NCBI GenBank assembly: GCA_951406725.2
Contig: OX597818.1
Span: 2,790,001-2,854,000 of the forward strand
Length of the DNA stretch: 64,000 nt
Direction: 5' to 3'
Origin: Octopus vulgaris
Taxonomy: Eukaryota
Made by a program: the position numbers and the translations under genes. The notes below the pieces were generated by a model. It made no database searches and was not told the DNA's origin. It saw nothing but the letters and a program-made list of their open reading frames with translations. Below are positions 12,500 through 64,000 of this stretch, piece by piece; the stretch's first letter is position 1; every line of letters starts with the position of its first letter.

Positions 12500-15400
12500 C
12501 ATACATACATACATACTTAAATGCATACATACCCACTTACATACCTACATACATACCTGCCTCCCTACCTCCCTACCTACCTACATACATACCTACATAC
12601 ATACACACATACATACCTACATACATACCTACCTCTCTACCTGCCTACCTACATACCTACATACATACATACCCACATACATACCTACATACATACCCAC
12701 ATACATACCTACCTACCTACCCACATACATACCTACATACCCACATACATACCTACATACATACATACATACATGCCCACATACATACCTACATACATAC
12801 ATACCCACATACCTACGTACATACCTACATACACACCTACATACATACATACCCACATACATACCTACATACATACCTACCTACCTAGCTTCCTACATAT
12901 ATACATACTTACCTACATACATACATACATACATACATAACCAGGTGATACACGAAGGAGTCATACCCAATGACTGGTGTAGCAGCATACTAGTCAACTG
13001 CTACAAAGGTAAAGGAGACGCCCTAGATACAAATAATTACAGAGGTATCAAGCTGTTGGATCTGGTAATGAAGGTTACAGAGAGGGTCATAGCCCAACTG
13101 ATTAGGGAGAGAGTCAACTTGGACGAGATGCAGTTTGGTTTCATGCCAGGGAAAAGCACCACTGATGCCATATTTCTGGTGAGACAGCTGCAGGAGAAAT
13201 ACCTAGCCAAAGATAAGCCCCTGTACCTGGCTTTCGTTGACATGGAGAAAGCCTTTGACAGGATCCCCCGATCCCTTATCTGGTGGTCAATGAGGAAACT
13301 AGGGATAGATGAATGGCTGGTGAGGGCTGTGCAAGCCATGTACAGGGATGCCGTAAGTAAGGTTAGGGTTGGCAACATGTACACAGAAGAATTCAAAGTA
13401 GAGATTGGGGTCCACCAGGATTCAGTACTCAGCCCCCTCCTGATTATCATACCTACCTACATACATACATACCCACATACCTACATACATCCCTACATAA
13501 CTACATACATACATACATACCCATATACCCACATACATACCTACCTACCTACCTACCTACCTATCTAATACCTACATGCATACATACATACCCATATACC
13601 TATATACATACATACATGCATACATACATACATACCTACCTACCTACCTACATACATACATACATAACCACATACCCACATATCTACCTACTTACATACC
13701 TACATACCTACCTACATACATACATACATACCCACATACCGACATACATACCTACATACCTACATACATACATACATACATACATACCCACATACATACA
13801 AAAATACATACCTACGTACATAATACCTACCTACCTACCTACTTATATACATACATACATACATACACACATACCCACCTACATACATACATATCTACCT
13901 ACCTGCATACATACATACATACCCACGTAGCTACATACATACCTATATACATACATACATACATACCTACCTACCTACCTACATACATACATACCTACCT
14001 ACATACACACATACATACATACCTACATAAATACATACATACATACCCACATACATACCTACAAACATAATACCTACATACCTACGTACCTAGCTACATA
14101 CATACCTACATACCTACATACGTACCTACATACATACATAGATACCCACATACATACCTACATACATACCTACCTAACTCCAGGCAATTACGGAGGAATT
14201 CAAGACAGGTTGCCCCTAGGAGCTCCTATATGCTGACGACCTTGCTCTAATTGCTGAGTCACTAGCAGAACTGGAGGAGAAGTTCCAGGTGTGGAAGGAG
14301 GGTCTAGAATCGAGGGGCCTTAGAGTCAACCTAGTTAAAACCAAAGTACTAATAAGTAGGAAGGTAGACAATCCACAAATGTCTTCAGGAAGATGGAGCA
14401 GTGGAGGGAACCCGTGGAAGAGGTAGACCCAGGAAAACTTGGGACGGGGTGGTGAAGCACGACCTTCGAACTTTAGGTCTCACTGAGTAAATGACCAGCG
14501 ACCGAGACCTTTGGAAATATGCTGTGCGTGAAAAGACCAGGCAGGACAAGTGAGTCCAGCCCACTTATGCATGCCTTTCCTCCCTTGGACACACAAAGAC
14601 CTGTTGAGGCAAGCGAAGTCGATATCGAACCTCATCCGACGACAGGCACCTATGCCAACCCCACTTTGCTTGCGAAAACCTGTTGAGGCAAGTGGAATCG
14701 AACTCGGAATCGAAATTGAACCAATCCTATGACTGGCACCCGGCAGATGCCAGGACCCCTAGACTGGAGATACGTAAAAAGCACTATCCGAATCATGGCC
14801 AATGCCAGCGCCGCCTCGACTGGCTTCCGTGTCGGTGGAACGTGAAAAGCACCATCCGAATCGTGGCCGAAGCCAGTGCCGCCTCGACTGGTTTCCGTGC
14901 CAGTGGCACGAAAAATGCACCAATCTGACCGTGGCCGATGCCAGCCTCGCCTGGCACCAGTGCAGGTGGCACGTAAAAAGAACCCACTACACTCACAGAG
15001 TGGTTGGCGTTAGGAAGGGCATCCAGCTGTAGAAACATTGCCAGATAAGACCGGAGCCTGGTGCAGCCTTCTGGCTCCCCAGATCCCCGGTCGAACCGTC
15101 TAACCCATGCTAGCATGGAGAACGGTCGTTAAACGATGATGATGATGACGATGATACATACATACATACTGACATACCCACATACATACATACATACCCA
15201 CATACATACCTACATACCCACATACCCGCATACATACCTACATACCTACGTACCTAGCTACACACATACATACATACCCACATACCTACATACATACAGA
15301 TACCCACATACCCACATACATACCTAGATACATACCTACCTACCTGCCTACCTACCTACATACATACATACACACCAACATACCTACATACATACCTACA

Positions 15401-26849: not shown

Positions 26850-28290
26850 TGGTGACTTTCAGTCTTTCTCATACTCTTCAGATGGAGAAGTAATGGGTGA
26901 ATATACATCTACTAATACCTGTGAGGATTATTAAAAATGCTGTAAATCAGCCTGAAATCATTAAAAAAATTTGTAAATGAAAAGTCTTCCCATTTTTCCA
27001 TTCACACCCATCAGATTAGGAAGTATTGCGTAAATTAACATATATTTACTAATAGATGAGAAGATTACATTTACCAAACATTCTATTAAAGCTTCCACCT
27101 TTCTCAGAAATCATGTACATCAAAAATGTTGCAAAGCAGTGTGAAATCATTCGAGAATTGCAAAATGGAAAATTGTTTTCTCAGGCTAATATTCAACATT
27201 AGCTGTTAAGCTTTCTCAATCACACTTGTCAGATTGAGATATAATATTTTAAAATACATTTACTAATAGCTGTGATTATTACATTTACCAAATATCTCAC
27301 TGAAGCTTCAACCTTTCTCAGAAAACATTAATATCGAAAATGTTAGAAATCAGTGCAAAATCATTTGAAAATCTTGAAAAGTAAAATCGCTGGTTTCTCA
27401 GGCTAATATTCAAAATTTTTATCTTTCCATTTTCCTCATATATACCCTTCAGATTGAGAAGTATTGGCTTAATTGATATATGTTTACTAATAGCTGTGAA
27501 GATCTTGTTTACCAAATATTTCACTGAAGCTTCCACCTTTCTCAGAAATCATATAAAACAAAAATTTGTAAATCAGCGTCAAATCACTTGAAAATTTTGA
27601 AATGGAAAATTGTTGGTTTCTCAGCATATACTTTCAATTTTTCTCACTAACAGATTGAGATGTAATGAGTTTATATTCATTTAGAAATAGCTGTGAAGAT
27701 TATATGTATCAAACATTTCCCTGAAGCTTCAACCTTTTACAGAAAACATGTACAGCAAAAATGTTGCAAAGCAGCATAAAATCATTTGAAAATGGCAAAA
27801 TGAAAAATTGTTTTCTCAGGCTAAAAATATTGCATATTTGTGACTTTGAATGTTTCTCACCTATGCTTGTCAAAGTGAGAATAAATAGGTTAATACATAT
27901 TTACTAATAGCTGTGAAGATTGTATTTACCAAACATTTCTCTTTCACAGAAAGCATGTACATCACAAATGTTGCAAATCAGGGTGAATTCATTCAAAAAT
28001 GATGAAATGAAAATTTGTTGTTTTGTGACTCAATTTTTCTCACATTTCTCAGATTGTGAAGTAATGCATTAAAATTCATTTACTAATAGCCATGAAGGTT
28101 ATACTTTCCAAACATTTCACTAAAGCTTCAACCTTTCGTAGAGAACATGAATATAGAAAATGTTGTATATCACTGTGAAATCATTCAAAAATTGCTATTG
28201 ACTTTCAATTTTTCTCACTTACGCTTGTCAGATTACTAAGTAATACATTTACTTATAGCTGTGTATACTATATTTATGAAACATTTCACT
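26850..28290. repeat. Degenerate tandem satellite, ~8 units of ~180-220 bp
   Basis: Recurrent TTTACTAATAGCTGTGAAGATT..TTTACCAAA..CACTGAAGCTTC..CCTTTCTCAGAAA core. Detached copies at ~29130-29345 and ~31290-31345. Confidence 0.8.
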
Positions 28291-29729
28291 GAATTAACAA
28301 TACTAACAAATCTACGATGGAAGCATACAATGAGGGAGGGAAGTCATAACAGCAGTATGTATTGAGAAATGTGTAAGTGGACTTGATAGGGTTACTGGAT
28401 GATGTCTTAGAGAAATCACATTATTGTTGGTGATTCTATTGCAGCTATGTGACATGTGTTTGCAACTAAGTGACATATGATGATGATTCACTCACAAACT
28501 GAATAGGCTCCCAGCCCCTGTATCATGAAAGGTTATGTGAACCATTCCTAACAAAAGCCAGAACTTCCTTTGACATAAAAAACATTAAGAAAAAATGCTA
28601 TTTAGATATACTTTTCTTTTAGTTGTTTACACTATTTTACATTTGTTTTTTATTCTTATACATTCAAAGCTCACAAATTTTCTAATTTAAATTATGAAAT
28701 TTTGATAATATCATTATGATTACAAAACTTCTTTGTAGACTATATTTTCTGCTTGGTCGACACTAATTTTCCAATTACTGGAGTCTGTTGCTCTACTCGT
28801 GACGTATAACTGGACATGTGTAAACATTGGAGTGGGTAAAAATACACCTACACGATCTAAAAATCTGGCCTTGTGCCTTATTTGCTGTAAATGCATGAGC
28901 GGAATCTTTAGGATTGCAAAAAATTAAACTAAGACTTACCTCTTACTGTTCTATATGAATAATATCTAGATGTTCTGGTACTATGGGTTATTTTGATTGA
29001 CAAAACTGAGACATAAACAACAGTTGCTTCGATTAGCCATTTTGAATCCTGCTTGAGACTGACACACTTCAATAACCACTGAATAGTCACACTATTTACT
29101 GTCCTCGCAACTCCCTTTGTATCTACAATGGGCTTCCACCTTTCTCAGAAATCATGTACATCAAAAATGTTGCAAAGCAGTGTGAAATCATTCGAGAATT
29201 GCAAAATGGAAAATTGTTTTCTCAGGCTAATATTCAACATTAGCTGTTAAGCTTTCTCAATCACACTTGCCAGATTGAGATATAATATTTTAAAATACAT
29301 TTACTAATAGCTGTGATTATTACATTTACCAAATATCTCACTGAGATATGATGAAAATCCAGAGTTACTTGTGGTTGGTGAATTCTTAATAAAAATGTGT
29401 AGGTGGTTTATCAGTTCAAAAATTGATATCCATGAAATAATCATCCTTTCTGATATTTTAATGCTAAAAACCTTCCTGATGGCTGTCTTTGTAATCCTAA
29501 AAAATATCGTAACCATTGGTCCAGCCATCTGGCCTTGAAGAGGGAACAGACAAAAAGACAGACAGATGGACAGACGCCCAAATCTGTCCATCTACGATGG
29601 GAAACAGAGCAAGAGTATCACAAATCTAAACTTTCTAAAGTCACAAACAATACAGCGGGGGTGGAATCCAGAGTTTATCTTTGTTGCCAGAATTTTTAGA
29701 AGATGATGATGTTGATGATGCTGATGAAA

Positions 29730-30830
29730 TTTCATCATCAACATCATTGTTTAACATCCATTTTCCATGCTGGCGTGGGTTGGACAGTTTGACTGGGATC
29801 TGGGAAGCCAGGAGGCTGCATGAGGCTCCACTCTGATCTGGCAGTGTTTCTACAGCTGGATGCCCTTCCTAACACCAACCCTCTGAGAGTGTAGCGGGTG
29901 CTTTTTATGTGCCACTGGCATGGGAGCCAGAGGGGGCTGGCATCAACCGTGTTTGGATGGTGCTTTTATATACCACTGGCATGGGAGCCAGTCAAGGTGG
30001 TGCTGGCATCAGCCATGTTCAGATGGTGCTTTTTACATGCCACCAGCACAGGAGCCAGTCAGGGTTAGGAGGCTGGCATTGACCACATTTGGATGGTGCT
30101 TTTTATGTGACACTGGCACAGGGAGCCAGACAGGCGGTACAATTTTCATTTGATTGTGGTTTGATTTGATATTGATGTTGATGTAATCCTGAAAAATATC
30201 GTAACCATTGGTCCAGCCATCTGGCCTTGAAGAGGGAACAGACAAAAAGACAGACAGATGGACAGACGCCCAAATCTGTCCATCTACAATGGGAAATTGA
30301 GCGAGAGTATCACAAATCTAAACTTTCTAAAGTCACAAACAATACAGCGGGGGTGGAATCCAGAGTTTATCTTTGTTGCCAGAATTTTTAGAAGATCAAA
30401 AAAAATTACTTGACTCAATAGGTCTCCTCAAGCATGGTATGTCACCCTTCGATCCAAAGGTACTTTTTGAGTGGGCTGGTTATGCGACACTGGTGTAGGC
30501 TACAGTTGCGATCTCACTTTATTTGCTGGGTCTTCTCAGTCACAGCATATCTCCAGAGGTCTTGGTCTTTTGTCATTGCCACTGTGAGGCCCAACATTTG
30601 AAGGTCATGCTTCATTCACCACCTCATCCCATGTCTTCCTGGGTCTCCCTCTACCATGGGCTCCTTCCACTGTTTGGGAGTGGCACTTCTTCACACAGCT
30701 CTCCTCATCCATCTGTAGTACATGACCATACCAGTGCAGACATCTCTTTTGCATGCCACATCTGATGCTTCTTATGTCCAACATTTCTCTTAGGGTGCTT
30801 AGACTCTGTCGTATGTGCACACTAACACTA
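29730..30830 (-). mobile_element. RTE LINE 3' end, interrupted by a duplicated 215-bp segment
   Basis: (CAT)n tail, 3' UTR repeats and WYGHVLQMDEES...RGRPRKTW (ORF 30605-30820). Confidence 0.8.
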
Positions 30831-43485: not shown

Positions 43486-45074
43486 TTAATTATTTTATGA
43501 ACCTATGTAGGCTAAGACCAGGAAAAATTCTGGCAGAAATTAAGAAATTTTGTTTGACACTACTATTTTTGTCACATCACAGAATAGTTTTACTCTAATG
43601 TAAGTCACCTTAAACAGCAAACTGTATTCAAAATATCTGCTCAAATTAGGTTTAGTATATTTATTAGAATCTTATTCATTAGTGTCTGCCTACAAACCTC
43701 TATCTTTGATGCACATATCACTAAATTTCATCACTCTCAACTGTTAGGGTTCAGATAAGATAAGTGTTAATGTATAAAATTCTTTTCATCTCTCTCTCTC
43801 TCTCACCCATCTCTCATTGAGGGCTGAGGGAATTCAGATAAGTACTAAGCTAATAATTAATACTAACTTTTAGCTATACATGCATATCTCCCCACTTTCT
43901 TCTCTCTGAGCTCTATTAATGGTTCCTATTAAACTCCATTTGGCAAACGTCAAATAAACAACATGTTTCTATCATTATTTTTACTTTTATACTTGTTTTA
44001 ATCATGGGACTGCAACCATGCTGGTTATTTGTTGAACCACCAAGTTATTGGATATAAACCAAAGAACACTAATTTTTAAGTATTGGCAATATAAAAACAT
44101 ATATAAAGGCATGCACACACACATATCTCTATATTTGTCTTTTTTATTAACAATTTTTTGGTATCATATTTGTTAGTATACACATCTCTTTCATGCACTC
44201 TACTTATCTCTCACTCCCAAAATCTGTCCTCATGGCCCTGTTCACTATATCATTGATATCTGGTAGCCCCCCTATACACTCAGGTTTTTACCACTTACTG
44301 CATTCCCCTATCCCACTCTCTATTCACACATTTTTGGCAATGCTTCAAGGGTATGCCTTGGCACTTGCCACCATCTATCTCTTCCTTCTTTTATTCAACC
44401 ATCTCATTTATATTCTGATCCTTGTCCCTTGTGAGTATGCTTGGCACTTTGCCACCATCTCTCTCCTGCTCTCTCTTGTACTCTTGCTGTCTCCTGTGCT
44501 CTCTCCTTCTCCTGCTTTTCCCTCAGGCTGGATAGCCATGTATCTCCTTTACAGCAGCACACCTGTTTCTGTCCTCATTCTTGATCGCTCAATCTCTCTC
44601 TCTCTCTCTCCCTCTCTCTGGCTGGGTAACCATGTACCTCCTCTACAGCAAGATACCTGTTTCTGTCTCTGTCTCACTATAACCTTTCATCATCTGACAT
44701 AAGGTTACCTCCTCCAATGCCACCTCCCCTCTCAAAGTATATTTGTTTTGCAAGTTACTTGGTGATCCTGCTAGTGCTGAGCCCACGTAAAAAGCATCCA
44801 GTCTACACTGTAAAATGGTTGGCATTTGGAAGGGCATCCAGGTGTAAAAACTATGCCAAAACTGACCGTGCCTGAGTTTGTGCCATGCAAAAACCACTCA
44901 GTCCACTCTGCTGGGTGGTTGGTGTTAGGAAGGGCATCCAACTGTAAAAACCCTGTCAAAACAGACACAGAAGTCTAGTGCAGGCTCCTGTCAGCATGGA
45001 AGGCAAACATTAAATGATGATGATGATGATGATGATGATATATATATATATATATATCATCATCATCATCATCA

Positions 45075-45107
<33 letters not shown>

Positions 45108-45111
<4 letters not shown>

Positions 45112-46028
45112 TTATAAACAAGGGCAAAAGAAAATTATTTCTATGCCAATATGCTGATAACAGACTTTTAAATCATCACTGTCCACATATTATTATACCC
45201 ACTACAGAAATACGATGTGCTGAAATCGAGGAAAGTTAGCCAACAGAATTTTTAAAAAGATCGTTATTTCTATATTGAATCAATTTCGGAATTAATCTCA
45301 TAAAATACTTTTTCCTCTTCAGTAGAAAATACGAATAGAAAGAAATGAAATACTTACATGCGCCCATGGAAAAAAAGCCGAAGCAAAAATCATGAGTACA
45401 CATAAGTACCCCAGATATATCTAAATATAAAATCCTTTGGTTAGCCTCAGCACACGTGTGAACTGTTCTCCACCACAGCTTATAGTGGTTACCAGTCCCT
45501 ATAGCTAATAGTAATAAATCTACTACTAATATAGGATGAAGTTCTTTTACAGAAAAAATTTCATCAAAAAAGTGGCAGCATATTAAAATACCTTTAAAGG
45601 TTAAAATTCTAAACAACTTATAAACAAGGGCAAAAGAAAATTATTTCTATGCCAATATGCTGATAACAAACTTTTAAATCATCACTTTCCACATATTATT
45701 ATACCTACGACAGAAATACGATGTGCTGAAATTGAGGAAAAAATCTTTTATGAGATTAATTCCGAAATTGATTCAATATAGAAATAACGATCTTTTTAAA
45801 AAATTCAGTTGGCTAGCTTTCCTCAATTTCAGCACATTGTATTTCTGTAGTGGGTATAATAATATGTGGAAAGTGACGATTTAAAAGTCTGTTATCAGCA
45901 TATTGGCCTAGAAATAATTTTCTTTTGCCCTTGTTTATAATTTTAACCTTTAAAGGTATTTTAATATGCTGCCACTTTTTTGATGAAATTTTTTTCTGTA
46001 AAAAAACTTCATCCTATATTAGTAATAG

Positions 46029-51039: not shown

Positions 51040-52540
51040 GTAAGGTGAAGGTTGGCAATGAGTACAGTGAAGAATTCAGGATTACCAAGGATCAGTCCTC
51101 AGCCCCCTCTTGTTCATCATAGTCCTCCAGGTAATAACAGAGGAATTTAAGACAGGCTGCCCCTGGGAGCTCCTCTATGCTGATGACCTTGTTCTTATAG
51201 CTGAATCACTACCAAAACTAAAAAAGAAGCTTCAGGTATGGAAGCAAGGTCTAGAATCAAAGGGCCTTAGAGTTAACCTAGCAAAAACCAAAGTCTTAGT
51301 AAGTAGGAAGGCAGACAAATCACAAATCCCTTCAGGTAGATGGTCCTGCTTGATCTGTAGGAAAGGCATAGGTAGAGACTCCAGAAGATGTACCCAGCGT
51401 AAGCTATGGGCATAGAAGAGGTGCAGCAATATCAGAAGAGGGTTAACAGGGAAAATAAATTTTGTGTGTGGAAGATGCACAGTTATAATAAACACTGAAA
51501 ATGTACAGAAAATAGACTCCATCAACTGCCAGTGGGGGTAAGCTAGAGTTAGTAGATAGCTCTTATTATCTAGGTGACCAAGTTTATAGCAGAGGTGGAT
51601 GCTACGAGAGTGTAGCAGTGAGAATAAGATTAGGCTGGATAAAGTTCAGAGAGCTCCTACCTCAGCTGGCCACAAAGGGCTGCTCTCTCAAAGTGAAAGG
51701 CAGATTGTATGATGCCTGTGTGTGTACAGCTATGTTACACAGCAGTGAAACATGGGCTGTGACAGCCAAGAACATATGTAGGCTTGAAAGAAATGAAGCC
51801 AGTATGTTTTGCTGGATGTGCAATATCAGTGTGCATGTTTGACAGAGTGTAAGCATCTTGAGAGAAAAGTTAGGTATAAGAGGCATCAGATGTGGTGTGC
51901 AAGAGAGATGATTGCACTGGTATGGTCATGTGATGCATATGGACAAGGATAGCTGTGTAAAGAAGTGCCGATCTCTAACTGTGGAGGGAACCTGTGGTAG
52001 AGGTAGACTCAGGAAGACATGGAATGAGGTGGTGTAGGATAATCTTCGAACTCCACAGAGGCAATGACTAGTGATCAAGAACTTTGGCGATATGCTGTGG
52101 TTGAGAAGACCTGTTATGGCTGATGCTGGTGTCGCGTAACTGGCACCCATGTCAGTGGCATGTAAAAAGCACTTTTTGAGCATTGGGCCTCACAGAGGTA
52201 AAGTGGCTGATGCTGGTGGCACACTGAAAGCTCCTTTAGAGTGTTGGGCCTTAATGAAGCAATGACTAAGCCTTTTGGCATTATGTCATGCTTGAGAAGA
52301 AGACCCATCAAGCCAAGTAAAATTGCAATCATGACAGATACCAGTGTCACACAAATGGCACCCATGACAGTGGCACATAAAAGCACCCATTACACTCTCA
52401 GAGTTGGTTGGTATTAAGAAGGGCATCCAGCCATAGAAACCATGCCAAATAAGACTGGAGTCTGGTACAGCCTTCTAGATGGTCAAACTGTCTAACCCAT
52501 GCCTGCATGGACAATGGACTTTAAATGATGATAATGATAG
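51040..52540 (+). mobile_element. RTE LINE 3' part with (GAT)n tail
   Basis: GCPWELLYADDL, VKGRLYDACV and WYGHV motifs. Same family as 12939-15150. Inverted RT scraps at 50330-51030. Confidence 0.85.
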
Positions 52541-53323
52541 TTATGTAAAATATTAACTCTAGGTTTGAGCCAAACAGGTGATACAATGTGCCCATAGGTT
52601 TTTTTTTTTTATCTCTGTGCCAAAACTCCCTTAATTAAGAAAGCTGTTCTGGAAATGCAATAATATGGAAAGGTATTCCTAATATAACATCAGTGCATGA
52701 ATCGGGTAGTACTGGAAATTGAATATCAGCATATATTCGTCCTCGAAGAGCTATATCTAACTTGCAGCATGTTTTGATAGATGACTTAAAATTAACTGCA
52801 GCCATCAATATAGTACCATTATGCTGAAAAGTAGGAAGCTGAAGAGAGCTGATCATGGATTTTGAAAGGAAATTTTCCGAGCTTCCAGTGTCTAAGAGAG
52901 CTTTTAATGAAAATCCATTCATAGATATTGCTATGATCGACATGTTCAATGCGGAGAGAACAGAAGCATGAGGAGCAGTTTGAATTGATGCAGTAACTGA
53001 ATTTTTAGACATGCATACTTTTGAAAAATGACCAATCTTTTTGCATTTCCTACATTTAGTATTTTGTGTGGGACATTTAACATGCTCATGTCATGATGCA
53101 CTTCCACACCTGTAACAATGAGTCCAATGTTTTGATGTATTACTTGCTGCTGCATTTGTTTCCTCTAAATTTTAACTACCTTCTACACTTTAGCATTTCT
53201 TCACTTTGTTTCACTGTAGCAACATGGATTGACATTGGATCATAAATTTACAAGTCAGTATTAGCAATTTCCAAAGCACATGCCCGATCGATTACCGTAG
53301 TCAGAGTAAGTGATTTATTTTCA

Positions 53324-53544
53324 TCTCTCCCTCTTTTACGTTGTCTGCCATCCCCCCTCTTCCTTTGCTAAGAGCATTTTTAAGCCAGCCCGTCATATTC
53401 CCGTGTCAGGCAGAAGAACGAAATGTTCCCAAGATAAGAGAGTCTTTCTAATCTAATGTTGTGGTTGAGCTGTTTATTATTTATTATTATTACTATTATT
53501 AGTAGTATTAGTATTGTCCCTTTGATCCTCGGTCGAAAATTTGC

Positions 53545-53580
<36 letters not shown>

Positions 53581-53901
53581 TTACTATTTTCAGCTTCGCC
53601 TTGTATTGCATATTATTTCTCCATACAGGGGTTTTTTTCAATGGCGGCCCATTTTCGCGGGGTTCCACTATTTCCCTTCTCTCTCTCCCTCTTTTACGTT
53701 GTCTGCCATCCCCCTCTTCCTTTGCTAAGAGCATTTTTAAGCCAGCCCGTCATATTCCCGTGTCAGGCAGAAGAACGAAATGTTCCCAAGATAAGAGAGT
53801 CTTTCTAATCTAATGTTGTGGTTGAGCTGTTTATTATTTATTATTATTACTATTATTAGTAGTATTAGTATTGTCCCTTTGATCCTCGGTCGAAAATTTG
53901 C

Positions 53902-53937
<36 letters not shown>

Positions 53938-54259
53938 TTACTATTTTCAGCTTCGCCTTGTATTGCATATTATTTCTCCATACAGGGGTTTTTTTCAATG
54001 GCGGCCCATTTTCGCGGGGTTCCACTATTTCCCTTCTCTCTCTCCCTCTTTTACGTTGTCTGCCATCCCCCCTCTTCCTTTGCTAAGAGCATTTTTAAGC
54101 CAGCCCGTCATATTCCCGTGTCAGGCAGAAGAACGAAATGTTCCCAAGATAAGAGAGTCTTTCTAATCTAATGTTGTGGTTGAGCTGTTTATTATTTATT
54201 ATTATTACTATTATTAGTAGTATTAGTATTGTCCCTTTGATCCTCGGTCGAAAATTTGC

Positions 54260-54295
<36 letters not shown>

Positions 54296-54617
54296 TTACT
54301 ATTTTCAGCTTCGCCTTGTATTGCATATTATTTCTCCATACAGGGGTTTTTTTTCAATGGCGGCCCATTTTCGCGGGGTTCCACTATTTCCCTTCTCTCT
54401 CTCCCTCTTTTACGTTGTCTGCCATCCCCCTCTTCCTTTGCTAAGAGCATTTTTAAGCCAGCCCGTCATATTCCCGTGTCAGGCAGAAGAACGAAATGTT
54501 CCCAAGATAAGAGAGTCTTTCTAATCTAATGTTGTGGTTGAGCTGTTTATTATTTATTATTATTACTATTATTAGTAGTATTAGTATTGTCCCTTTGATC
54601 CTCGGTCGAAAATTTGC

Positions 54618-54653
<36 letters not shown>

Positions 54654-54976
54654 TTACTATTTTCAGCTTCGCCTTGTATTGCATATTATTTCTCCATACA
54701 GGGTTTTTTTTTTCAATGGCGGCCCATTTTCGCGGGGTTCCACTATTTCCCTTCTCTCTCTCCCTCTTTTACGTTGTCTGCCATCCCCCTCTTCCTTTGC
54801 TAAGAGCATTTTTAAGCCAGCCCGTCATATTCCCGTGTCAGGCAGAAGAACGAAATGTTCCCAAGATAAGAGAGTCTTTCTAATCTAATGTTGTGGTTGA
54901 GCTGTTTATTATTTATTATTATTACTATTATTAGTAGTATTAGTATTGTCCCTTTGATCCTCGGTCGAAAATTTGC

Positions 54977-55012
<36 letters not shown>

Positions 55013-55334
55013 TTACTATTTTCAGCTTCGCCTTGTATTGCATATTATTTCTCCATACAGGGGTTTTTTTCAATGGCGGCCCATTTTCGCGGGGTTCCAC
55101 TATTTCCCTTCTCTCTCTCCCTCTTTTACGTTGTCTGCCATCCCCCCTCTTCCTTTGCTAAGAGCATTTTTAAGCCAGCCCGTCATATTCCCGTGTCAGG
55201 CAGAAGAACGAAATGTTCCCAAGATAAGAGAGTCTTTCTAATCTAATGTTGTGGTTGAGCTGTTTATTATTTATTATTATTACTATTATTAGTAGTATTA
55301 GTATTGTCCCTTTGATCCTCGGTCGAAAATTTGC

Positions 55335-55370
<36 letters not shown>

Positions 55371-55692
55371 TTACTATTTTCAGCTTCGCCTTGTATTGCA
55401 TATTATTTCTCCATACAGGGGTTTTTTTCAATGGCGGCCCATTTTCGCGGGGTTCCACTATTTCCCTTCTCTCTCTCCCTCTTTTACGTTGTCTGCCATC
55501 CCCCCTCTTCCTTTGCTAAGAGCATTTTTAAGCCAGCCCGTCATATTCCCGTGTCAGGCAGAAGAACGAAATGTTCCCAAGATAAGAGAGTCTTTCTAAT
55601 CTAATGTTGTGGTTGAGCTGTTTATTATTTATTATTATTACTATTATTAGTAGTATTAGTATTGTCCCTTTGATCCTCGGTCGAAAATTTGC

Positions 55693-55728
<36 letters not shown>

Positions 55729-56050
55729 TTACTATTTTCAGCTTCGCCTTGTATTGCATATTATTTCTCCATACAGGGGTTTTTTTTCAATGGCGGCCCA
55801 TTTTCGCGGGGTTCCACTATTTCCCTTCTCTCTCTCCCTCTTTTACGTTGTCTGCCATCCCCCTCTTCCTTTGCTAAGAGCATTTTTAAGCCAGCCCGTC
55901 ATATTCCCGTGTCAGGCAGAAGAACGAAATGTTCCCAAGATAAGAGAGTCTTTCTAATCTAATGTTGTGGTTGAGCTGTTTATTATTTATTATTATTACT
56001 ATTATTAGTAGTATTAGTATTGTCCCTTTGATCCTCGGTCGAAAATTTGC

Positions 56051-56086
<36 letters not shown>

Positions 56087-56407
56087 TTACTATTTTCAGC
56101 TTCGCCTTGTATTGCATATTATTTCTCCATACAGGGGTTTTTTTCAATGGCGGCCCATTTTCGCGGGGTTCCACTATTTCCCTTCTCTCTCTCCCTCTTT
56201 TACGTTGTCTGCCATCCCCCTCTTCCTTTGCTAAGAGCATTTTTAAGCCAGCCCGTCATATTCCCGTGTCAGGCAGAAGAACGAAATGTTCCCAAGATAA
56301 GAGAGTCTTTCTAATCTAATGTTGTGGTTGAGCTGTTTATTATTTATTATTATTACTATTATTAGTAGTATTAGTATTGTCCCTTTGATCCTCGGTCGAA
56401 AATTTGC

Positions 56408-56443
<36 letters not shown>

Positions 56444-56623
56444 TTACTATTTTCAGCTTCGCCTTGTATTGCATATTATTTCTCCATACAGGGGTTTTTT
56501 TCAATGGCGGCCCATTTTCGCGGGGTTCCACTATTTCCCTTCTCTCTCTCCCTCTTTTACGTTGTCTGCCATCCCCCCTCTTCCTTTGCTAAGAGCATTT
56601 TTAAGCCAGCCCGTCATATTCCC
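53324..56623. repeat. Near-perfect tandem array, 9.2 x 357-359 bp
   Basis: Marker CGTCATATTCCC recurs at 53391, 53748, 54106, 54464, 54823, 55181, 55539, 55897, 56254 and 56612. Units differ only in homopolymer length. Confidence 0.97.
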
Positions 56624-57112
56624 GGTGCACCCGCCCTTGCCCACCCCCACCACCAATACCGGATATCTCTATATTTTTGCTCCATCTATACCGGATGTCG
56701 CTTCTCCCACCACCATTATAGGTGTCTACTCTTCGAACCCCCTCTTCAATACGCTATTTCAACATGCATTACCCCTCTCTTGATATCCTACGTTCTACTT
56801 GCCTAGAACCTGTCATCATTTCTCTGAACCACCCCTCCCCACTGGTGCTCCCCTATATTCCCCCCCCCACATAAAAAGCACCATCCGAACGTGGCCGATG
56901 CCAGACCCCTCTGGCACCTGTGCAGGTGGCACGTAAAAAACACCCACTACACTCGCGGAGTGGTTGGCGTTAGGAAGGGCATCCAGCTGTAGAAACACTG
57001 CCAGACTAGACTGGAGCCTGGGGCAGTCCCGAGCTCCCCAGACCCCGGTCGAAACCGTCCAACCCGTGCTAGCGCGGAAAACGGACGTTAAACGATGATG
57101 ATGATGATGATG
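56622..57112 (+). mobile_element. Non-autonomous RTE-tailed element (C-rich body, RTE 3' UTR, (GAT)n)
   Basis: Closely similar copy at 62112-62610. The last ~240 bp match the RTE 3' end at ~14900-15150. Confidence 0.85.
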
Positions 57113-57648
57113 AGTCTAGTTTGAATACTTTGAGATGAAATTCTGGTAATAAAGAAATCTTGAATGTACTCATCTCTGTAAGTTTTGGCAGAAACACTCG
57201 TAAAATCGCAATCCAGACTAAGCTTTTGAAGAGAACACACATATTCATCTATAGATTCACTAGGTGTTTTCATGTAAACAGTTTACGTCAGGTGTCAACA
57301 GAAAACAGAATTGACTGGCTTAATAAAGGCATCCTTCAAATCAACTAAAGCAGAATCAAATGTGATACATTCTGAAATAATTTCAAAGTTTTCTGAAGAA
57401 ATTGAATTCACCTAAAGTCCGAGGTATGTATTGTAGGTTCCAGAAGTAACGGTACCTTTATATCGAGAGAAGAGGAACAACCAGAGCTTGAATGTTCTAG
57501 CAGCTTCTAGAGCACTAGGAAGAACTTCCAATCTTTCGGGACATAAGCCCTGCTCTGTATTTTAAGTAAATAAAATTAAAGTATACTGACAGTTCCAAAA
57601 AGAAAGCAGCGAACTTAGGTTTTTACTTGCTTACAATTCGACCACCTC

Positions 57649-59787: not shown

Positions 59788-60260
59788 TCATCATCATCAT
59801 TGTTCGACCGTGGTCGAGACAATGGAATTTACCATGCTACGCCAGACTTCACGGTCCATCATGGCGTTACGGAGGTCCTGTTGCTGGATGCCTGTATCCC
59901 TGGAGATTAAATCAGGGTAGGAGAGCGTGCGCCTCCTGGTGTTGCGAGTAGATGGCTTCCAGAGGAGAAGAATAGAAATTACCTCTTTTTCAGCTCTACA
60001 ACAATGTCCAGCAAACTGGACTCTCCTACCTTTCACAAGAGATGACACAGGTGGTAGTTTCCCCATATATTTGCATTTTGGTTGGATGGCGCTTCCACGA
60101 GAGATTTTGAGCTCTCATAAGGAGGCGAGTGTAGGTTCCATCCAACCGCCTCTCAAGCTTCTTTGATAACGTCCAGGTTTCTGAGCCATATAGTAAAATT
60201 GGTTCGACTGTGGCTTTGAAGATTTCAAGTTTGAAGTCTCTACTTAGATTTGATGGACAA
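59788..60260 (-). mobile_element. RTE/RTE-X-like LINE 3' fragment
   Basis: FKATVEPILLYGSETWTL...RRVQFAGHC...AMMDREVWR, with a (TGA)n tail. Confidence 0.8.
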
Positions 60261-61073
60261 AGGAAGAAATCGAAGGTAGAAACTGAGATAAGTAGAGAGA
60301 GAGGCAGATAGAAATAGATAGGGAAGGTTTTGTGCACAAGAGGGGAGAGGAAAAGGATATAGAAATGGATAGAAAAGAGAGAAAGTCTTACACCAAATAT
60401 TGAACATTGTGAGAACAGAAGTGGATGTGTGACACTATATTTTCTCATAGCCTTAAAATGTTGCACAGAAGGTCGACATCATACACATACACACACAGAT
60501 TTAAAAAATGCACTGAAGGACAACAAAGAAGCAATTGGAAAAATCACATACAAGTGGTGGTGGTGGCAGTGGCAGCATAATATGTGTGCTTTGGTGTTGG
60601 CTGGTGCTGCTTATACAAATTGAGTGTCTTGTCCTAGGTAAATGAGTGAAATTGCAATTACTGCATATGCATAGTCACTTGCATTGAGAAAACTGGCATA
60701 TTTTGGGATTCATGTGTTCATAGATTTTACTTTATTTACAGTTGACAGATTCATCATGGAGCTGTGAGGTACATATTCAGATTGAGTTGGAAAGTGTGTG
60801 TGTGGGGGGAGGCGTGATTCCTCACTAATTAAAGTAATAGTAGTGGTTATGGTTGTAGCATGGTAATGATTATGATGGGTCAGTTGTAATATTCAGAGAA
60901 AATTAAGAATGTGGATAGCTGGACAGTGAATGGCTTTTCATTGTGGAGTTTTAGATCAACAATGGTGCTAGTTTTGAGGAGTGGCTGCTGGTCATGTTGT
61001 TGCTGCTGCAGATATATACATATCTGCAAGGATATTTTAATCCCATTTTTTTCTTTTATATATATATATATAT

Positions 61074-61598
61074 ATTAATAGTTATCGCCATACTAATATG
61101 GCAGTCTATAAATAAGACCAAAGCTGTCGCTGATTAGCTCCAAGAGGCCATCGCCTCTAGCTAGCTATATGACACACGAACCTGCGTCCATTACAACCTT
61201 CGAACAGAGAGACTTAGTAATTTTAATATTTCTATTATTGAAAACAAGTGGATGTATTCCACTGTAACTAGGTAAATAAAATCTTCGAACAGACGGTCAG
61301 TAGCGACACCTGCTGGTTCTGACTACACTGCATTGATAAAGGGCAACAACCCTGAAACATGTCTGCAGATGTCTGACTAGCAAGGTGAAGCGGCTGACCT
61401 CCCCTGTTCGAAGTTTGTAATGGACGCAGGTTCGTGTGTCATATAGCTAGCTAGAGGCGATGGCCTCTTGGAGCTAATCAGCGACAGCTTTAGTCTTATT
61501 TATAGACTGCCATATTAGTATGGCGATAACAATTAATATCCAGTAATGCTGCCGTAATCTCCTTTAGAGAGACTTAGTAATATTAATATTTCTATTAT
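61074..61598. mobile_element. Penelope pLTR-like fragment with 135-bp inverted repeats
   Basis: 61074-61208 is inverted at 61404-61538. A 33-bp direct repeat lies at 61206 and 61566. The fragment follows (TA)n and has a hammerhead motif in the spacer. Confidence 0.6.
61328..61368 (+). ncRNA. Minimal type I hammerhead motif with mutated core
   Basis: CUGCA-UUGAUAA-AGGG caacaa CCCU-GAAACAUGUC^-UGCAG. Palindromic stem III ACAUGU. The core differs from CUGAnGA at two positions. Confidence 0.65.
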
Positions 61599-62104
61599 AA
61601 GGCAACCCACAACATGTGCTCTCTCTCTCTCTCTCATTCATCTACCTCATCTACCAGCTATATAATCCCGTGCACAGATAAGTTTGAATGCCTATTTTCA
61701 CTCCTAGACTGATCATACATGTTTCTCTATCTATCTAACTATTTTATCTGATTTCTATCTATTTTGTCTGATTTGTTCATTTCTCCTCTCGTTATATGAT
61801 CGACCTTCGATTCGCCATCTTGAAACCTTTTTCCTTTAATACACTTCCGCCTTCTCCAAAAATCCTTCTTCCGGACAACTTTTTACTTAGAAGGCAACCC
61901 ACAACATGTGCTCTCTCTCTCTCTCTCTCATTCATCTACCTCATCTACCAGCTATATAATCCCGTGCACAGATAAGTTTGAATGCCTATTTTCACTCCTA
62001 GACTGATCATACATGTTTCTCTCTCTATCTAACTATTTTATCTGATTTCTATCTATTTTGTCTGATTTGTTCATTTTCTCCTCTCGTTATATGATCGACC
62101 TTCG
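61599..62104. repeat. Tandem duplication, 1.7 x 292 bp
   Basis: AAGGCAACCCACAACATGTG at 61599 and 61891. The second copy ends at GATCGACCTTCG, 62104. Confidence 0.9.
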
Positions 62105-62111
62105 TGTATCG

Positions 62112-62610
62112 CGGTGACCCGCCCTGCCCACCCCCACCACCAATACCGGATATTTCTATTTTTCTCCATCTATACCGGATGTCGCTTCTCCCACCACCAT
62201 TATAGGTGTCTTCTCTTCGAACCCCCCTCTTCAATACGCTATTTTACCATGCATTACCCCTCTCTTGATATCCTACCTTCTACTTGCCTACAACCTGTCA
62301 TCATTTCTCTGAACCACCCCTCCCCACTGGTGCTCCCCTATATTCCTGCACCCCCACCCACATAAAAAGCACCATCCGAACGTGGCCGATGCCAGACCCC
62401 TCTGGCACCTGTGCAGGTGGCACGTAAAAAGCACCCACTACACTCGCGGAGTGGTTGGCGTTAGGAAGGACATCCAGCTGTAGAAACACTGCCAGACCAG
62501 ACTGGAGCCTGGGGCAGTCCCTAGCTCCCCAGACCCCGGTCGAAACCGTCCAACCCGTGCTAGCGCGGAAAACGGACGTTAAACGATGATGATGATGATG
62601 ATGATGATGA
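62112..62610 (+). mobile_element. Second copy of the non-autonomous RTE-tailed element
   Basis: Collinear with 56622-57112 from CGGTG(C)ACCCGCCC to the (GAT)n tail. Confidence 0.85.
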
Positions 62611-62636
62611 TATAAGAAAAATGGGATATATATATA

Positions 62637-64000
62637 TCATCATCATCATCATCATCATCGTTTAACGTTCGCTTTCCATGCTAGCATGGGTTGGACGATT
62701 TTGACTGAGGGCTGGCGAACCAGATGGTTGCACCATCTCCAATCTTGATTTGGCCGAGTTTCTACAGCTGGATGCCCTTCCTAACGCCAACCACTCCGAG
62801 AGTGTAGTGGGTGCTTTTTACGTGCCACTGGCACGGGGGCCAGTCAGGCGTTACTGTTGTCCTTCAGTATCGCTCGAATCCTTTTACACATGCCACCAGC
62901 ACAGGTGCCAGTAAGGCAACTTTGGTAACGATCACGCTCAAATGGTGCCCTTTTACGTGTCACTGGCACAGAAGCCAGTTGGCTGCTCTGGCAACGATCA
63001 CACTGGGATGGTGCTCTTGGCACCCTACTAGCACGGGCACAAGTGCCAGTAAGGCGCCGCTGGTAACGATCACACTCGAATGGTGCCCTTTAAATGCCAC
63101 TGGCACAGAAGCTGGTTAGCCGCTCTGTCAATGATCATGCTCGTATGGTGCCCTTTAAATGCCACTGGCACAGAAGCTGGTTAGCCGCTCTGTCAATGAT
63201 CATGCTCGTATGGTGCCCTTTAAATGCCACTGGCACAGAAGCTGGTTAGCCGCTCTGTCAATGATCACACACGTATGGTGCTTTTTGCACCCTGCCAGCA
63301 CGGACGCCAGTCATCGAATTTGATTTTGATTTTGCTTTTGATTGATTTGATTTGATTTCACTTGCCTCGGCAGGTCTTCGCAAGCAGAGTTTTAGTGACC
63401 AAAGAAGGAAAAGGTTATGTACAAGTGGGCTGGTTATGCCCCTGGCATAGGCCAAGAGATTATGGTTTCATTTGGCTTGCCGGGTCTTCTCATGTACGGC
63501 ATATTTCCAAAGGTCTCGGTCACTAGTAATTTCCTTGGTGAGGCCTAAAGTTTGAAGGTCGTGCTTCACCACTTCATCCCAGGTCTTCCTAGGTCTACCT
63601 CTTCCACAGGCTCCTTCAACCACTAGGGTGTGGCACTTTTTCACATAGCTATCCTCATCCATTCTTGCCACATGACCATACTAGTGCAGTCGTCTCTCTT
63701 GCACACCACATCTGATGCTTCTTAGGTTCAACTTTTCTCTCAAGGTACTTACACTCTGTCAAGTATGCACACTGACATTACACATTCATCGGATCATACT
63801 GGCTACATTCCTTATGAGCTTATGCATGTCTTCAGCAGTCACAGCCCATGTTTCACTGCCATGTAGCATGGCTGTTCATACACAAGCATCATACAGTCTA
63901 CCTTTTACTCTGAGCGAGAGGCCCTTTGTTGCCAGCAGAGGCTAGAGCTCTCTGAACTTTGCCCAAGCTATTCTTATTCTAGCAGCTACACTTTCAGTGC
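62637..64000 (-). mobile_element. RTE LINE 3' end with ~53-bp tandem repeats in the 3' UTR
   Basis: MDEDSYVKKC...RGRPRKTWDEVVKHDL. (CAT)n tail lies tail-to-tail with the element at 62112-62610. Repeats TGGTGCCCTTTAAATGCCACTGGCACAGAAGC at ~63080-63260. Confidence 0.88.

Follow-up and report, generated by a model that had tools for sequence, protein, structure and literature searches.

Why should a long tandem array stand directly in front of a LINE-tailed element, with both lying inside the gag gene of a third element? The question is raised by a locus of Octopus vulgaris, contained in a 64,000-nt stretch of contig OX597818.1 that is referred to here as the window. A preliminary description of this locus held that a 9.2 × 358-bp array and its tailed element had entered the gag of a Gypsy element as one block, and offered two origins for the array. 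Either a circular template was copied at this very insertion, or the array is the 5′ monomer array of the element itself. These two possibilities make different predictions for other copies of the element and for related organisms, and it is these that we follow below.

Structure of the array-bearing element

The element at this locus (element A) opens with a head array at 53324-56624 on the forward strand, for which TRF gives a period of 358, 9.2 copies and 99% matches, in agreement with the preliminary description, the count being read from the assembled sequence. The array is made up of nine full monomers of 357-359 bp and an 80-bp partial monomer. It is C/T-rich with (TTA)n tracts and has a CpG observed-to-expected ratio of 0.87. 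Its units differ by C5/C6 and T7/T8 runs and by one G3T10, and once homopolymers are collapsed all nine full units are identical, just as had been claimed. No convincing higher-order period is seen in the distribution of variants among the nine units.

Downstream of the array come, in order, a 244-bp body, a 225-bp tail of LINE type and (GAT)6. The body (56625-56868, forward strand), which is shared with other copies, is 70% pyrimidine, carries two ETS-like CCGGAW motifs and has no tRNA head. Its folding is slightly better than that of shuffled sequences (z −2.8). In other copies the body contains go-back joints that span about 165 bp (56859 to 56706), which indicates that the retroposon family duplicates internally. 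The LINE-derived 3′ tail (56869-57093, forward strand) is present at very high copy and is common to several further elements of the window and to a broken, RT-encoding LINE, a remnant whose 3′ end (52356-52538) it matches with 72.8% identity across 195 nt. We take this tail to resemble the 3′ end of an abundant octopus retroposon. The terminal (GAT)6 microsatellite occupies 57094-57111 on the forward strand. The window in general is rich in microsatellites and retroposon tails.

Coding capacity and small-RNA ancestry were both sought. The two longest frames across the last units and the body are without a Pfam match. ARAGORN returned no tRNA, and the A/B box pattern is absent from the monomer of element A, from the monomer of a second copy (element B, discussed below) and from the body. 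Rfam gave no accepted match in either element. A SNORD107 match near A (E 1.3, at the tail) was rejected because its score lies below gathering, as do those of all 29 matches near B, most of which reflect a hairpin formed between two (GAT)n tails in opposite orientation. A tRNA-derived SINE (SINE2) was rejected because there is no tRNA-like head with A and B boxes, and membership of L1 because there is neither ORF1 nor ORF2 and a (GAT)n tail takes the place of poly(A). A 23-nt pattern from the body has no match in prokaryote genomes and none in viral contigs. A 20-nt pattern from the unit met two loci in metagenome contigs, which have 60-62% GC and only 20-25 matching letters and are taken as chance.

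A single, recent insertion in a Gypsy-type gag

The interrupted gag lies on the reverse strand. Its upstream part (57112-57555, reverse strand) corresponds to residues 2-148 of the best homologue and has stop codons of its own. The downstream part (52668-53322, reverse strand) corresponds to residues 150-374, comprises the zinc knuckle and the protease, contains a stop and a frameshift, and has no RT after it. Pfam matches zf-CCHC and gag-asp_proteas in this left flank of element A. With a gag, a zinc knuckle and an aspartyl protease, and with homologues that carry RT, RNase H and integrase, the host belongs to Ty3/Gypsy. When the two flanks are aligned separately to the Gypsy-type polyprotein P0001, residues 2-148 fall at 57555-57112 and residues 150-196 at 53322-53194, and in all seven of the homologues aligned (11 were found) the flank matches are separated by exactly one residue. 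This places the block at a single point and restricts any TSD to at most 2-3 nt. A direct search for flanking direct repeats of at least 4 nt around element A returned none. The entry of a LINE-tailed element as a single block, its single insertion point between consecutive parts of a Gypsy polyprotein and its little or no TSD had all been proposed from the sequence, and each is upheld by these alignments. A Helitron reading, based on a TC start after A and a CTAG at 57117-57120, was rejected, as the CTAG sits in gag sequence that aligns to the homologues and is present in empty-site contigs.

Those contigs come from sequencing runs. Among 24 runs listed, 14 hold at least half of the sampled unit and body words, under three organism labels; in six metagenome RNA runs the share was 0.04. 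Four of them were compared, all as short-read contigs: X2 (organism A), X3 and X5 (organism B), and X10 (organism C). The compared span, 56267-57600, represents one unit, the body, the tail and the right flank; the uncovered interval 56267-56460 and the lack of gag-flank cover in X5 were left out as evidence. The preliminary description had called for a check of empty-site alleles, and these exist. One contig in each of X3 and X10 aligns from 57112 outward and lacks the element, continuing instead into 299 and 355 further letters, respectively, that are unlike it. In X2, a filled-site contig (57089-57468) runs from the end of the tail into gag, with 23 letters on the element side, which is below the 31-letter bridging rule. 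Filled (X2) and empty (X3) alleles show four listed differences over about 490 nt of flank. Both the empty site in the contigs of two related organisms and the small number of differences in the flank indicate that the insertion of element A is young. The insertion is probably neutral, since the interrupted gag has other breaks.

A likely partner LINE and the class of the element

The broken LINE whose tail is related to that of element A is a 3′ half at 51071-52540 on the forward strand. It matches RVT_1 (E 4.5e-13) and represents the likely partner family; Pfam and the Atlas clusters classify it no further than RT-like. It is a candidate member of the RTE clade, going by its C-terminal motifs. 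Several properties of a LINE-mobilised retroposon are found together in element A: the tail shared with an RT-encoding LINE, the (GAT)n end, a non-coding sequence, a second copy in the window, and a site that is empty in X3 and X10. The TSD is not of the RTE type, for which 7-15 bp is given as typical (PMC6007223), as element A has none of at least 4 nt and element B has one of 6 bp. The family is best read as a non-autonomous retroposon that is probably mobilised by RTE machinery.

A second copy with an unrelated head

Element B lies about 5 kb from element A and was missed in the preliminary description. Its head array (61599-62104, forward strand) consists of a 292-bp monomer in 1.7 copies with 97.7% identity over 218 nt, and includes GCCATCTT at 61814 and two ETS-like CTTCCG motifs. 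About five extra nucleotides join this head to a second copy of the body and tail, which ends in (GAT)9 (62110-62611, forward strand) and is 95% identical to that of A over 501 nt. The 6-bp TSD of element B has its left copy at 61596-61601 (forward strand) and its right copy at 62611-62616, the left reaching 3 nt into the monomer and the right 1 nt into the tail.

The monomers of A and B are unrelated, with (CT)n runs alone in common. Both copies of the body within the window stand behind a tandem head, which in each case begins with a partial unit. The occurrence of the same body behind unrelated monomer arrays is best read as a sign that heads are exchangeable between copies. At the unit-body junction of A, where the preliminary description had seen microhomology, the second body copy shares seven of eight letters, which is a partial check of that microhomology.

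The unit and its junction outside element A

Two contigs among the matches listed bridge the junction between unit and body. Record 27 of X5 (organism B) covers 56571-56669, a stretch of 99 nt with 0 differences, of which 54 letters lie on one side of the junction and 45 on the other. Record 9 of X2 bridges the junction in a diverged form (56587-56663) with 2 differences and 6 gaps. X5 may be an RNA run. In organism B the junction is bridged in X5, yet the site of element A is empty in the DNA run X3. The presence of the junction in other contigs means that it is older than the insertion of element A.

The unit itself is also far more widespread than the locus. A contig of the unit with a 2-nt deletion, a variant absent from array A, reaches a depth of 10000 in X3 and 1668 in X10, where the locus contig has depths of 52.3 and 6.78, so that the variant unit stands at roughly 190 and 246 times the locus. 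Such high-depth variants, absent from array A, identify the unit as a repeat family. The ratio of unit to body start in summed depth, which is not copy number, is 1.4-2.2 in X2 and X3 and 5-8 in X10, and these values are weakly indicative of a few monomers per element. Summed depths, again as distinct from copy numbers, suggest that monomers number in the low thousands. Whatever its function may be, array A is very likely the inherited head of a family.

Candidate promoter features of the monomers

A putative YY1-like core, so labelled after PMC5381506, is found in monomer A at 53641-53648 on the reverse strand. It occurs once per monomer, nine times in all, and its end lies some 33 nt ahead of the point in the monomer where the array begins. 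The core CGCCAT is present in both monomers, and with 2000 shuffles of each a match arises in 10.9% for A and 4.5% for B. Longer YY1-like matches arise in 0.8% (A) and 0.75% (B) of shuffles and are absent from 59.2 kb of masked background. Head B holds the exact core that is given for mouse L1 monomers (PMC6454616); monomer A has the shorter core alone, in the orientation opposite to B. The ETS-like pairs arise in 0.4% of shuffles for the two in B and in 1% for the two in the body. All of these motif tests are post hoc and cover nine patterns on three sequences. The CpG observed-to-expected ratios of the monomers (0.87 in A and 0.89 in B) lie above the mean for the window (0.38), but they are equalled or exceeded in 13-14% of the 197 background windows, so CpG enrichment is not distinctive.

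The start points of the arrays are of additional interest in this context. Both arrays open with a partial monomer at 33-76 nt downstream of the phase of the YY1-like motif. For the T and G monomers of mouse, 5′ ends are described as clustering closer, within about 21 bp of the YY1 site (bioRxiv 10.1101/2022.08.06.500894).

Origin of the tandem head

The account that we consider, on balance, slightly more probable than not is that elements A and B are copies of a young, many-copy, non-coding retroposon whose tandem 5′ monomers act as redundant, and so far putative, Pol II promoters, and which is copied as a block by the machinery of the LINE that shares its tail. Transcription would start inside a monomer. 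Each round of copying would lose the part of the head upstream of the start, and the monomers left over would still allow the daughter to be transcribed. Priming would proceed from the (GAT)n tail on a target that matches it, and the reverse transcriptase of the tail-sharing LINE would insert the element whole. Arrays would be replenished either by template switching of the reverse transcriptase between identical monomers or by unequal exchange, both of which are routes proposed for mouse L1 monomers (bioRxiv 10.1101/2022.08.06.500894, PMC6454616), and new heads would be captured occasionally. Rolling-circle or template-switch copying could lengthen an array. The reading of the heads as promoters draws on the inherited junction, the existence of a unit family, the unrelated tandem heads on two of two bodies, the YY1 cores, the partial-monomer starts and the mouse L1 precedent. 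Set against it are the post hoc nature of the motif tests, a CpG content that is not distinctive, array starts at a greater distance from the YY1-like motif than those of mouse, the lack of an RTE-type TSD at A, a total of two bridging contigs among the matches listed, and a head of nine units, which is long in comparison with mouse averages.

The circular-template model of the preliminary description supposes that, after copying the element, the reverse transcriptase jumped to a circular 358-nt RNA or DNA and travelled around it 9.2 times at this insertion. Such an event would suit the identity of the units save for homopolymers, the missing TSD and the few letters of microhomology at the junction. 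It also has a precedent in retrozymes, for which copying of circles into multimers by RT has been proposed (PMC7761336). A jump at this locus would not, however, be expected to reproduce the unit-body junction that is found in other copies and in another organism, and as monomers are homogeneous across the family, the identity of the units needs no one-step synthesis. The circles of retrozymes are described as carrying a hammerhead and pairing extensively with themselves (PMC7761336), whereas here neither strand of the two doubled monomers contains a hammerhead core, no Rfam ribozyme family is matched in element A or B at E up to 10, and the folding of the monomers is not unusual (z −0.88 for A and +0.80 for B), although a spliced circle or eccDNA would require neither a ribozyme nor a strong fold. 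A twister-like pattern occurring once per B monomer was set aside, as it derives from a crude pattern and Rfam reports no twister; identity as a non-LTR retrozyme was rejected given the lack of a hammerhead and of a self-paired fold. In X5, the unit has only 1.7 times the depth of the junction, a weak point against the circle. Circle copying at this insertion is weakened by these results, and we regard it as quite improbable. The 5′ monomer array, which the same description had named as its alternative, fits better, as the junction is shared with other copies.

Three further explanations accept the element and differ over its array. A short head of one to three monomers may have been inserted and then grown in place through unequal exchange or replication slippage. 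Such growth would have a direct repeat to start from in a partial plus a full monomer, element B has no more than 1.7 units, and the go-back joints of the body reveal a family prone to internal duplication. The youth of the insertion, given its few flank differences, speaks against such growth, as does the absence of any substitution or clear higher-order period that would mark successive exchanges, and we hold it to be unlikely. Alternatively, the monomer may serve no promoter function, being a passenger or a dispersed tandem repeat of independent origin that was joined to a single master copy, with flanking promoters driving transcription. The excess of unit depth over body-start depth, five- to eight-fold in X10, is in keeping with this, as are the post hoc nature of the motif evidence and the unremarkable CpG. 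It would nonetheless require that tandem passengers came to lie twice, independently, at almost one position of the same body, each with a YY1-like core, and the depth ratios are far from the expectation for a large free satellite, albeit as weak evidence; a passenger thus appears distinctly unlikely. Finally, long-read assembly could have inflated the unit number of a real element, as the homopolymer-only differences resemble an unpolished long-read consensus and no record compared spans the whole stretch. We give this very little credence, since in X2 the continuation from monomer to monomer appears as a loose end at 56624, and short-read contigs often carry a T-run length variant (21% in X3 and 42% in X10), which indicates that some of the homopolymer variation is real.

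Relation to known elements and significance

The promoter-bearing head that we favour has its counterpart in the 5′UTR arrays of murine L1 (L1Md A, Tf and Gf, and the approximately 650-bp monomers of rat). As described for these elements, tandem 5′ monomers begin with a partial first unit and are followed by a non-monomeric stretch, a YY1-like motif is present, and unrelated monomer types are found on related bodies (PMC5381506, PMC11602158, PMC6454616). Mouse L1 heads are reported to average 2.3-3.7 units, to be lost in daughters and to be repeatedly replaced (PMC5381506, PMC11602158, bioRxiv 10.1101/2022.08.06.500894). Unlike murine L1, the octopus element is non-coding, bears the tail of a different LINE and ends in (GAT)n. 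Its monomers, in further contrast, are AT-rich (36-38% GC) with microsatellite tracts. The likeness is one of description, and the promoters are putative here.

Bipartite non-autonomous RTE elements and RTE-tailed SINEs (RTESINE, WALLSI1/1A with swapped 5′ regions, Bov-A and Ceph-SINEs) are similar in being non-coding, in their LINE tail and microsatellite end, and in the exchange of 5′ regions (PMC5786205). The tandem heads set the present element apart from them, the word "tandem" being absent from the main text of PMC5786205, and so does element A in having no tRNA head that could be found. Metazoan non-LTR retrozymes likewise consist of tandemly arranged units, each a few hundred bp long, in invertebrates (PMC7761336). 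The element here differs from them in lacking a hammerhead and a stable fold, and in the apparently fixed attachment of its units to a LINE-tailed body. The octopus SINEs (OK, OR1, OR2, "Octopus-SINE" and unclassified SINEs) are set beside it by description and not by sequence, the likeness being a presumed resemblance of tails.

No description of a tandem-headed retroposon of this kind was found in the accessible cephalopod literature; Repbase, Dfam and subscription papers could hold the family. Short motifs of the window, including one from the tail, were not found in the available paper text and supplements, which for PMC9115989 means four readable supplement files of eight. A set of 893 recently active unclassified SINE families is reported in PMC13282606, and the retroposon family may already be present in that library or in Repbase with its head undescribed.

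A more far-reaching proposal, which we offer tentatively and with more doubt than confidence, is that a mollusc non-coding retroposon independently reached the murine L1 solution to promoter loss. It would capture unrelated YY1-bearing promoter fragments, multiply them during reverse transcription by template switching or on a monomer circle, swap heads between subfamilies and scatter kilobase arrays of identical monomers. Tandem 5′ monomers are presented as a special feature of mouse L1 promoters, with their adoption and expansion described as unclear (PMC6454616). If the proposal is true, this would be a second independent case of a monomer head, and thus an instance of convergence, in an element that is short and non-coding, has two or more types of head and numbers hundreds to thousands of young copies. 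Comparisons of donor and daughter copies would then tell whether arrays expand while being reverse-transcribed or in place. Among the "satellites" and "unclassified SINEs" of these genomes, some may belong together as the two halves of a single element.

Neighbors of the Tail-Family Elements

The tail family comprises elements that share a LINE-derived 3' tail, and one minus-strand member, at about 29720-30180, is flanked on both sides by a 215-bp direct repeat (29490-29704 and 30182-30396) whose copies differ by five mismatches. In its placement, this repeat resembles a very long TSD. TSDs of approximately 200 bp may be a feature of C. elegans RTE-1; a literature search found no confirmation of this length.

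Directly upstream of element B (61599-62611, plus strand), which carries a 292-bp monomer at its head, lies a MITE-like element with 136-bp inverted arms that are 98% identical (61072-61207 and 61404-61539), and positions 61566-61598 repeat 61206-61238. Two pairs of elements are arranged tail to tail, at 62585-62660 and 45014-45079, with (GAT)n opposite (ATC)n and a short AT-rich spacer between the opposed tails. This arrangement suggests that insertion is targeted to AT-rich or tail sequence.

Other Repeats and the gag Flank

A 5'-truncated LINE fragment is present on the minus strand at 59797-60226, and its truncated end is adjoined by a 254-bp stretch (60227-60480) that is pyrimidine-rich on the element strand and, by sequence comparison, unrelated to the 358-bp monomer of element A or the monomer of element B. 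The nested inverted and direct repeats at 45085-45967, with arms of 126-174 bp at 89-96%, form a rearranged foldback element. A degenerate old satellite with a unit of about 214 bp occupies 26985-28293 and 29076-29342. In the gag sequence flanking element A, position 57286 is C in the window and T in all three DNA-type runs; the C is either a variant private to the window or an error in the consensus.

Tandem Repeats within the Tail Family

Tandem repeats of 65-70 bp lie directly 5' of the tail in other family members (14772-14952, 29897-30134, and 62899-63303), and this pre-tail repeat is also visible in the run contigs as loose ends, where contigs leave the reference, at 56868 and 56904. The tail family appears to form tandem arrays at three levels. 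Within the body of element A, at 56706-56859, the run contigs contain go-back joints from other genomic copies that give a unit of about 165 bp.
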